The notes under the pieces were generated by a model. The model searched no databases, had not been told where the DNA came from, and saw only the letters and a list, made by a program, of their open reading frames with translations. From Escherichia phage Ivi: a DNA stretch of 44,890 bases. Within the stretch, counting starts at the first letter, position 1. Every line of letters starts with the position of its first letter. The position numbers and the translations under genes were made by a program. The stretch lies in the sequence record PV841871.1. One strand, written 5' to 3'. Below, in pieces: positions 39,798 through 39,891 of this stretch.

Positions 39798-39827
39798 ACT
39801 ATAATAGCGAACTATTCATTATGTCAA
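39798..39827 (-). promoter_or_regulatory. Class II promoter TTGACA-N18-TATAGT with AATAG-TTCG-CTATT in the spacer
   Basis: Perfect -35 on minus strand; divergent from the Cro-like gene. Confidence 0.6.
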
Positions 39828-39831
39828 TGGG

Positions 39832-39860
39832 CTTTTCTAAAATAATTAATATGGTACTAT
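39832..39860 (+). promoter_or_regulatory. Class I-like promoter for the Cro-like gene (-10 TACTAT, weak -35, degenerate palindrome AATAT-GGTA-CTATT)
   Basis: Matches class I -10 block GGTACTATTCA; -35 region CTTTTC is poor. Confidence 0.35.
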
Positions 39861-39891
39861 TCACATATCAACTGACTAAGGAGTAATTGAC

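Follow-up and report, generated by a model that had tools for sequence, protein, structure and literature searches.

In the genome of this virulent E. coli phage, a member of Kagunavirus, a gap of 125 bp (39767-39891) separates a leftward gene (39254..39766) from a rightward gene (39892..40107), the same intergenic region that an earlier, sequence-only reading had described. The following features were found in and beside this gap. Operators and the A/T-rich tract are listed without strand; the tract, the core of the rightward promoter, and the direction of the terminator are read from the sequence.

39827..39798, minus strand: P_L, predicted leftward sigma-70 promoter (-35 TTGACA at 39827..39822, 18-bp spacer, -10 TATAGT at 39803..39798)
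39801..39818: O_L, operator-like palindrome ATAATAGCGAACTATTCA (ATAATAG-CGAA-CTATTCA), at about -27 to -10 of P_L, covering the spacer and the upstream half of the -10
39833..39851: A/T-rich tract between both promoters, also forming the spacer of P_R
39846..39863: O_R, degenerate operator TTAATATGGTACTATTCA (TTAATAT-GGTA-CTATTCA), at about -21 to -4 of the putative P_R
39852..39860, plus strand: core of the putative rightward promoter P_R, a putative extended -10 TG-g-TACTAT (TGgTACTAT)
39878..39883, plus strand: ribosome-binding site AAGGAG of the Cro-like gene, 8 nt before the ATG and conserved in relatives
39892..40107, plus strand: gene for a 71-aa single-domain XRE/HTH_3 protein (434-Cro-like), the proposed operator-binding repressor, with the recognition helix VSQGAINQLALG
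40096..40125 (40096-40116 in the scan), plus strand: intrinsic terminator of the Cro-like gene, one-directional, with a T-tract on the plus strand only

The window, that is, the whole stretch of 44,890 bp analyzed here, is essentially one entire Kagunavirus-type genome. Its region 38600-41200 has 95% identity to Escherichia phage vB_EcoS_fFiEco02, the closest annotated relative, and matched 445 phage records, nearly all of them from Kagunavirus or Jerseyvirus (subfamily Guernseyvirinae). In this relative, for which 77 features are annotated, one strand carries the terminase, head, tail, and lysis genes, and the opposite strand carries a leftward replication cluster. The largest ORFs of the window encode tail proteins, DNA polymerase, and helicase-primase. 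Matches in the Pfam scan of the larger unassigned ORFs were to a lysozyme, a C5-methylase, an HNH/AP2 endonuclease, an SNF2 helicase, and a tailspike N-terminus. None of the 77 features annotated in vB_EcoS_fFiEco02 is a CI-type repressor, an integrase, or an RNA polymerase, and no CI, integrase/recombinase, or RNA polymerase was found in the 17 window ORFs scanned with Pfam. A sigma gene was found neither in the annotation of the relative nor in the large ORFs of the window, and no Rfam family matched the whole window at the gathering threshold. Published analyses of Kagunavirus genomes also report the absence of lysogeny genes (PMC9825357, PMC7203180). The sequence-only reading had noted that neither a CI-type repressor nor an integrase is present and had preferred a role in timing over one in lysogeny. 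The first point agrees with our results, and because neither gene was found, the timing role is indeed the more plausible one.

P_L (TTGACA-18-TATAGT) matches 11 of 12 consensus positions in the consensus scan, and its spacer falls within the 16-18 bp of the sigma-70 criterion, in agreement with the strong leftward promoter that had been proposed at exactly 39798-39827. Transcription is predicted to start at about 39791, and downstream lie the leftward genes from 39254..39766 through 37402..38658, encoding a 170-aa protein, a NinX-like protein, and an exonuclease. Promoter-like matches as a class are about as frequent in the window as in shuffled sequence (4 found against 3.2 expected and, in another scan, 15 against 14.2), which makes hexamers by themselves weak evidence. 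The architecture of P_L is repeated, however, at 36909..36881 and 33291..33263. Conservation was analyzed in 39 Kagunavirus sequences, namely the window, one GenBank relative, and 37 IMG/VR contigs. Both hexamers of P_L are invariant in this set, and the 2-3 bases at 39819-39821, between O_L and the -35, are variable and include an indel that gives spacers of either 17 or 18 bp. The first gene after P_L is not constant among the relatives; the promoter and the leader are kept. O_L has no mismatches to the genome consensus described below; its half-sites are invariant in the 39 sequences, and variation is found at its centre (39808-39809). Both 5' untranslated regions are variable as well.

Several other candidates in the gap were discarded. 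The second leftward promoter-like match (39871..39842, 9/12) is at chance level for the consensus scan, and a rightward TATAAT at 39800-39805 lacks a -35. The inverted repeat ATGTCAAT/ATTGACAT (39821-39828 and 39886-39893) was attributed to chance, its right arm varying freely at 39887 and 39890. As a speculation, the A/T-rich tract at 39833-39851 might possibly be an UP element of P_L.

For the rightward direction, the sequence-only reading had described a -10 block with a degenerate palindrome at 39832-39860. Both elements are real, but the range, which extends from the non-conserved -35 position to the -10, ends 3 bp before the palindrome does. It had also described the -10 block as class I-like; the TACTAT block is indeed common to the TTGCAC-type promoters described below, but no -35 is conserved in the genus, and in Kagunavirus P_R looks like a weak extended -10 promoter, by analogy with its counterparts. 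Its -10, TACTAT, matches four of the six consensus positions (TAnnnT form) and is preceded by the TGn of an extended -10, in which TG is conserved in relatives and the middle base is G, A, or C. The -35 position (39832-39837, CTTTTC) is weak and variable among relatives, with changes at 39836-39837. P_R, with a predicted start at about 39867, was missed by the consensus scan, there being no -35 here, and the case for it is made by analogy and by the conserved TG. The counterpart in Jerseyvirus SETP7 has the same TACTAT 17 bp downstream of a TTGCAC -35, and that in Cornellvirus VSiP is TTGTGC-18-TATACT. On the strength of these two counterparts, a rightward promoter at this site is predicted to be a feature conserved across genera.

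The right half of O_R is perfect; of the two mismatches between its left half and the consensus, one affects the core. O_R is invariant in the 39 sequences except for the centre base 39854. Its sequence TTAATATGGTACTATTCA corresponds to a block, ATAATAGGnTACTATTCA, found in the TTGCAC-type promoters at 83, 10816 (minus), 20010 (minus), and 43540. The counterpart of O_R in phage fBC-Eco01 is the predicted promoter PP5 (PMC9825357 Table S2). The -35 of P_L and the -35 position of P_R are separated by 4 bp, which agrees with the back-to-back layout that the earlier reading had proposed. The operators that it took to be shared are two separate 18-bp copies, one per promoter, because the centres of O_L and O_R are 45 bp apart.

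The motif ACTATTCA occurs twice in the 125-bp gap and has 7 matches in the window against 1.1 expected. In its extended form it is an 18-bp palindrome-like element, ATAATAG-N4-CTATTCA, which can be idealised as TGAATAG-N4-CTATTCA. With up to three mismatches allowed, the idealised form has 9 matches in the window against 1.6 expected, and none of 100 shuffles reached 9. In an all-against-all comparison of 18-mers, this family was the most repeated one both in the window and in Jerseyvirus SETP7. In addition to O_L and O_R, the following copies were found:

36884..36901: in the spacer and -10 of a leftward promoter, TTGACA-17-TATAGT (36909..36881), which precedes the genes for ssDNA-binding protein and DNA polymerase
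33266..33283: ATAATAG-TTCG-CTATTAG, in a leftward promoter, TTGACG-17-TATAGT (33291..33263), which precedes the C5-methylase and SNF2-helicase genes
43540..43557: over the -10 TACTAT of a rightward promoter, TTGCAC-17-TACTAT, before gene 43588..44019
83..100: AGAATAG-GCTA-CTATTCA, over the -10 of a rightward TTGCAC-type promoter, with a start codon about 27 nt downstream
10816..10833: over the -10 of a leftward TTGCAC-type promoter that drives gene 10270..10791, antisense in the structural gene cluster
20010..20027: over the -10 of a leftward TTGCGC-type promoter that drives 18610..20109, antisense in the tail gene cluster
3774..3791: degenerate copy TGACTAG-TTGA-CTATTAT, over the -35 of TTGACT-17-TATATT, upstream of packaging and structural genes

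The last of these copies is conserved in Kagunavirus and Jerseyvirus genomes; its membership in a common regulon is uncertain. Each of the eight copies linked to a promoter overlaps a -35/-10 pair, and a start codon follows about 25-55 nt downstream. The sequence-only reading had described a local switch; this description does not hold, the same operator being present on at least six other promoters across the genome. These six promoters beyond P_L and P_R belong to non-structural gene blocks, including two blocks of small rightward genes, and two of the operator-bearing blocks are antisense within structural operons. The gene at 10270..10791 is RusA-like by PHROGs and is annotated as a sliding clamp in a relative; 18610..20109 contains a superinfection-immunity-like gene and a gene for a DNA-repair exonuclease. 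The helicase-primase operon is the one non-structural block whose promoter (TTGCTT-17-TATACT, about 43170..43142) carries no operator.

The operator-bearing promoters form two classes. In the TTGACA-type class (39801, 36884, and 33266; all leftward and in the replication cluster), the palindrome begins 2-3 bp after the -35 and lies mainly in the spacer, with its distal half entering TATAGT. In the TTGCAC-type class (83, 43540, 10816 minus, and 20010 minus), the arrangement is TTGCAC-17-TACTAT, with TACTAT inside the right half of the palindrome. The TATAAT in the left operator half of the latter promoters was rejected as a -10, being only 7 bp from TTGCAC. Relative to the hexamers, the registers of the palindrome are 6 bp apart between the two classes. 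The existence of two registers therefore favours a separate protein site over contacts of RNA polymerase.

The candidate for the protein that occupies this site is encoded beside P_R, by the only gene flanked by two operator copies. The sequence-only reading had called this 71-aa XRE-HTH protein Cro-like, and both domain and structure searches bear this out. Pfam HTH_3 is its sole domain (47.2 bits against a cutoff of 23, 2.3e-12, residues 11-65), and its best sequence match in PDB is 434 Cro (1zug, E 2.2e-6, residues 6-68). The AlphaFold2 model (pLDDT 77.5) is a globular fold of five helices (5-17, 21-28, 32-39, 48-57, and 62-66), the second and third making up the HTH, and in Foldseek it had TM-scores of 0.75-0.84 to 434 Cro, the P22 c2 N-terminal domain, C.AhdI, SinR, and HipB. 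The protein has no C-terminal oligomerisation or peptidase domain. A word-seeded protein search for homologues in unrelated contexts gave only Kagunavirus-like proteins with at least 77% identity.

Comparison between genera was used to relate operators to their possible binders. In five Kagunavirus genomes, nearly all sites at the orthologous promoters have CTATTCA as one half, together with CTATTAT, and 8-9 'CA' ends were found per genome. In four Jerseyvirus genomes, both halves are CTATTAW (CTATTAT or CTATTAA), with 0-1 'CA' ends, and the difference between the two genera is concerted over six or seven separate loci. For Cornellvirus VSiP, the pattern ATAATAS-N4-CTAAT (better, ATATTAS-N4-CTAATAT) has 8 matches with at most one mismatch against 0.4 expected, in a scan that is slightly circular, the pattern having been derived from this phage's own two sites by the Cro-like gene. 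The copies include sites beside the Cro-like gene and at the promoter orthologous to that at 36884 of the window. A first Cornellvirus motif, ATTAGT-NN-AGTAT, was not enriched (11 matches against 9.8 expected), and self-comparison of VSiP 18-mers gave terminators only and no palindrome family. The recognition helices of the Cro-like proteins are SQGAINQ in Kagunavirus, SQSLITH in Jerseyvirus, and TQSAISH in Cornellvirus. The comparison favours a link of the operator variant to the recognition helix of the Cro-like protein, rather than to that of the second small HTH protein of these phages, a link drawn from three clades only and confounded with phylogeny. That protein is encoded as follows:

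42928..43098, minus strand: 56-aa HTH_17 (Xis/MerR-like) protein, the only other small HTH protein

On this evidence we lean, with modest confidence, to a model in which a dimer of the Cro-like protein would bind O_L, O_R, and the dispersed operators and shut off early transcription, its own promoter last, and would thus act as a timer or governor. The sequence-only reading had likewise assigned regulation of this region to the Cro-like protein, and the cross-genus comparison strengthens the case for its binding and repression. The sequence elements, with their enrichment and conservation, and the fold of the protein are established here; the identity of the binder, repression upon binding, and the order in which operators are filled are what we infer. 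In this model, the host sigma-70 polymerase would fire the strong TTGACA-type promoters, those of the TTGCAC type, and the weak P_R at infection. The 71-aa protein made from P_R would accumulate and bind the consensus operators as a dimer. Once filled, operators lying over the spacer or -10 would block the polymerase, so that early transcription would fall genome-wide. The degenerate O_R would be filled last, and the resulting negative autoregulation would cap the level of the Cro-like protein. With the two antisense blocks off, head-on transcription against the late genes would be removed. If the A/T-rich tract is an UP element, which is speculative, competition between polymerase at P_L and P_R would be expected to last until O_L is occupied. 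Because CI and integrase are missing, the predicted circuit is a one-way timer or governor with no second stable state.

Several results count against such a regulon. The Cro-like proteins of Kagunavirus and Jerseyvirus share only 49% identity, and the difference of just 1-2 positions between their operators is smaller than one might expect. The Kagunavirus operators are consistently asymmetric, with CTATTAT on one side and CTATTCA on the other, which a simple homodimer does not explain. The operator-free promoter of the helicase-primase operon means that not all early genes are covered, and the small number of clades behind the protein-operator link, with its phylogenetic confounding, weighs in the same direction. 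The most extensive form of the proposal, which takes in the virulent Guernseyvirinae phages generally, a single Cro-only regulon with at least eight dispersed promoters and nearly the whole non-structural programme, in which antisense shut-off would clear late transcription and operators would have co-evolved genus by genus in a concerted manner (CTATTCA, CTATTAW, and sTAATAT), is tentative and seems to us possible rather than probable.

The palindromes could instead be bound by another phage protein, either the 56-aa HTH_17 protein or an unrecognised small protein, with the Cro-like protein acting elsewhere or only locally. A homologue search found HTH_17 in Kagunavirus and Jerseyvirus only, where the 18-mer family is clearest, and its 82% identity between the two is a better fit to near-identical operators than the 49% of the XRE protein; the promoter of the HTH_17 gene carries no operator. 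However, the HTH_17 recognition helix varies inside Kagunavirus (TRQTINNWLRSG, TRRTLNNWLKSG, and SPMTLNRWLRSG), whereas the operators and the HTH of the Cro-like protein are identical there, and Kagunavirus phages with the helix TRRTLNNWLKSG, a near match to TRRTLNNWLRDG of Jerseyvirus, keep CTATTCA operators. Cornellvirus has no HTH_17 gene, and yet an operator-like motif is enriched at its orthologous promoters. The 56-aa protein also appears to have no obvious dimerisation element for a symmetric site. For these reasons we consider a binder other than the Cro-like protein rather unlikely. Because HTH_17 is limited to these two genera, its presence or absence could not by itself discriminate between the candidates.

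The same motif has been described before as a promoter element. In fBC-Eco01, seven 'phage RNA polymerase' promoters with the consensus tgAATAGTa-ccTATTat-T were reported, among them PP5 (34223..34242) before the gene for a 71-aa 'transcriptional repressor' (34271:34486), i.e., the copy before the Cro-like gene (PMC9825357), and seven PHIRE promoters were reported in VB_EcoS-Golestan (PMC7203180). The motif and its positions are thus already published; the attribution to a phage polymerase invokes a gene that these phages lack. The reading proposed here is that of an operator over host sigma-70 promoters. The motif could nevertheless be the core of a 'phage-specific promoter' for a modified host polymerase or a phage RNA polymerase, with no repressor involved, and it is true that it always coincides with promoter hexamers and that its halves resemble -10 hexamers. 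This alternative is faced with the absence of RNA polymerase and sigma genes from the relative's annotation and the large ORFs of the window, and with the two-fold symmetry of the motif, nearly perfect in Jerseyvirus. The registers, 6 bp apart in the two classes and shifted by a further 3 bp in Cornellvirus, are unlike fixed polymerase contacts, and promoters with consensus TTGACA and TATAGT require no extra element. We judge a polymerase-specific core to be unlikely.

A host factor that recognizes A/T-rich palindromes could tie early transcription to host physiology. The Fur box GATAATGATAATCATTATC and the ARG box TGAAT-N4-ATTCA are superficially like ATAAT...ATTAT and TGAAT...ATTCA, respectively, and this likeness to the halves of the palindrome is the attraction of a Fur-like or ArgR-like box. 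The spacing, however, is off by 1 bp from the Fur box and by 4 bp from the ARG box. The regulator specificities of E. coli and Salmonella hosts are very similar, but the half-site differs between the coliphage and Salmonella-phage genera, and also between Jerseyvirus and Cornellvirus within the Salmonella phages. A host regulator is accordingly given very little credence. Least probable of all, and in our estimate barely credible, is a lambda-like lysis-lysogeny switch, either working or a remnant. Divergent promoters beside a Cro-type gene would suit it, and homologues occur at the cro position of lambdoid phages, as in Klebsiella phage RothD, where the homologue has a 434-type helix and ACAA-N6-TTGT operators. 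Set against this are the lack of CI and integrase in the relative's annotation and the scanned window ORFs, the dispersal of the operator over the genome with no tripartite shared operator, and the published Kagunavirus genome analyses, which report no lysogeny genes (PMC9825357, PMC7203180).

The proposed Cro-like circuit has parallels in several known systems. Like the Cro-like protein, 434 Cro is a single-domain protein of 71 aa with the five-helix XRE fold, and the two sequences align from end to end, with 38-40% identity in the structural alignment. Both systems have palindromic operators over core promoters, with binding here being predicted. The two differ in the recognition helix (SQGAINQ here, QQSIQL in 434) and in the half-site (CTATTCA here, ACAA in 434). 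Unlike in 434, there is no partner CI and no set of three tandem PR/PRM operators here, and the sites lie over eight promoters; the gene is neither the head of a rightward early operon nor divergent from cI, and in this genus it is a monocistronic unit that converges on the replication operon. The geometry of the 18-bp site, whose 4-bp centre is variable, is that of P22 operators. Dimers of the P22 c2/Cro type bind operators of about 18 bp consisting of 7-bp half-sites and a 4-bp centre without protein contact.

In the CI/Cro switch of lambda, as here, divergent promoters flank a Cro-type gene, and the turning down of PL and PR by Cro probably corresponds to the early leftward turn-down here. 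In contrast to lambda, CI, integrase, and an equivalent of PRM are missing here, the operators are two separate ones and not three adjacent shared ones, and the predicted timing is one-directional. The nearest analogue of the timing logic would be the controller proteins of restriction-modification systems. These C proteins bind palindromic boxes over their own promoter, which results in a delay followed by autorepression. Two of them, C.AhdI and C.BclI, are small XRE dimers with fold TM-scores of 0.76-0.78 to the Cro-like protein. C proteins have one or two local operators and also activate, whereas here at least eight dispersed sites were found, all placed for repression.

The searched literature on Guernseyvirinae contained descriptive genome papers only and no binding, expression, promoter, or transcriptome experiments. 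The proposed early-gene shut-off circuit looks like a well-known kind of regulation. Kagunavirus and Jerseyvirus phages are often isolated for therapy and food safety. The Cro-like regulon, if correct, would provide a testable model of early shut-off in a virulent siphovirus and would explain why a 'repressor' gene need not signal a lysogeny safety concern. The three diverged repressor/operator pairs could serve the study of specificity evolution or be used as orthogonal parts.

The Cro-like gene of the window is monocistronic, since it has its own terminator, and runs towards the helicase-primase operon in a convergent arrangement. The first gene of that operon in Cornellvirus, vB_SenS_SE1, and Serratia phage Scapp is the Cro-like homologue. 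The monocistronic convergent arrangement in the window probably arose through an inversion of the Cro-like/helicase-primase module.

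The first gene downstream of the leftward promoter P_L (39254-39766 in the window) is mosaic among the relatives of phage Ivi (L002-L038), in the region about 150 bp upstream of the gene for the Cro-like protein. Across these relatives, at least four unrelated coding sequences adjoin a single conserved combination of P_L promoter, leader, and RBS, with the breakpoint lying a few bases or less from the start codon. Several operator-controlled transcripts have a leader/RBS block in common, located immediately upstream of the start codon and reading AAACGAGAGGAG or AAACGAGACAGAGGAG:

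39767-39791, shared leader/RBS block
101-128, shared leader/RBS block
43558-43587, shared leader/RBS block

Operator-like sites were also found away from the Cro-like gene:

3774-3791, degenerate operator copy TGACTAGTTGACTATTAT, overlapping the -35 element of the promoter before the packaging and structural genes
Jerseyvirus SETP7 (L045) 37244-37261, L050 13686, and L051 38035, site TTAATATGTTTCTATTTC or TTAATATTTTTCTATTTC

In the TGACTAGTTGACTATTAT copy, one half differs by T-to-G at a core position; the copy is kept in both Kagunavirus and Jerseyvirus. Through this copy, late transcription could be tied to the same regulator as the other operator copies. The Jerseyvirus site is similar in its left half to TTAATATGGTACTATTCA of the Kagunavirus O_R, the degenerate operator copy before the Cro-like gene. 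It is located between small rightward genes, not adjoining the Cro-like gene.

In Cornellvirus VSiP, vB_SenS_SE1, and Serratia phage Scapp, the Cro-like gene lies upstream of the helicase-primase gene on one strand. Relative to these three phages, the helicase-primase module (40121-43098 in the window) is inverted in Kagunavirus and Jerseyvirus, where it has gained a 56-aa HTH_17 gene together with its own operator-less promoter. The following genes distinguish the window from its close relative, Escherichia phage fFiEco02:

40121-40318, minus strand, 65-aa gene of phrog_36357, function unknown, between the terminator of the Cro-like gene and the helicase-primase gene
32088-33041, minus strand, C5-cytosine DNA methylase gene
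36914-37435, minus strand, HNH-AP2 homing-endonuclease-like gene

The phrog_36357 gene is absent from fFiEco02, which has another gene arrangement at that spot. The methylase and HNH-AP2 genes sit inside the replication cluster of the window, and other small genes take their place in fFiEco02.

An element about 170 nt long was found in two long non-coding stretches, the copies being 76% identical:

10913-11075, plus strand, copy 1
43219-43375, plus strand, copy 2

No ORF was found in this element, and no Rfam family matched it at the gathering score. A sigma-70-like promoter (TTGACTTTT...AAAATATGMTAAGCT) stands at the start of both copies; downstream of it come a hairpin (AAGCTC..GAGCTT) and conserved blocks rich in G+C. 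The element could represent a structured leader or a small RNA of the phage that has been duplicated.
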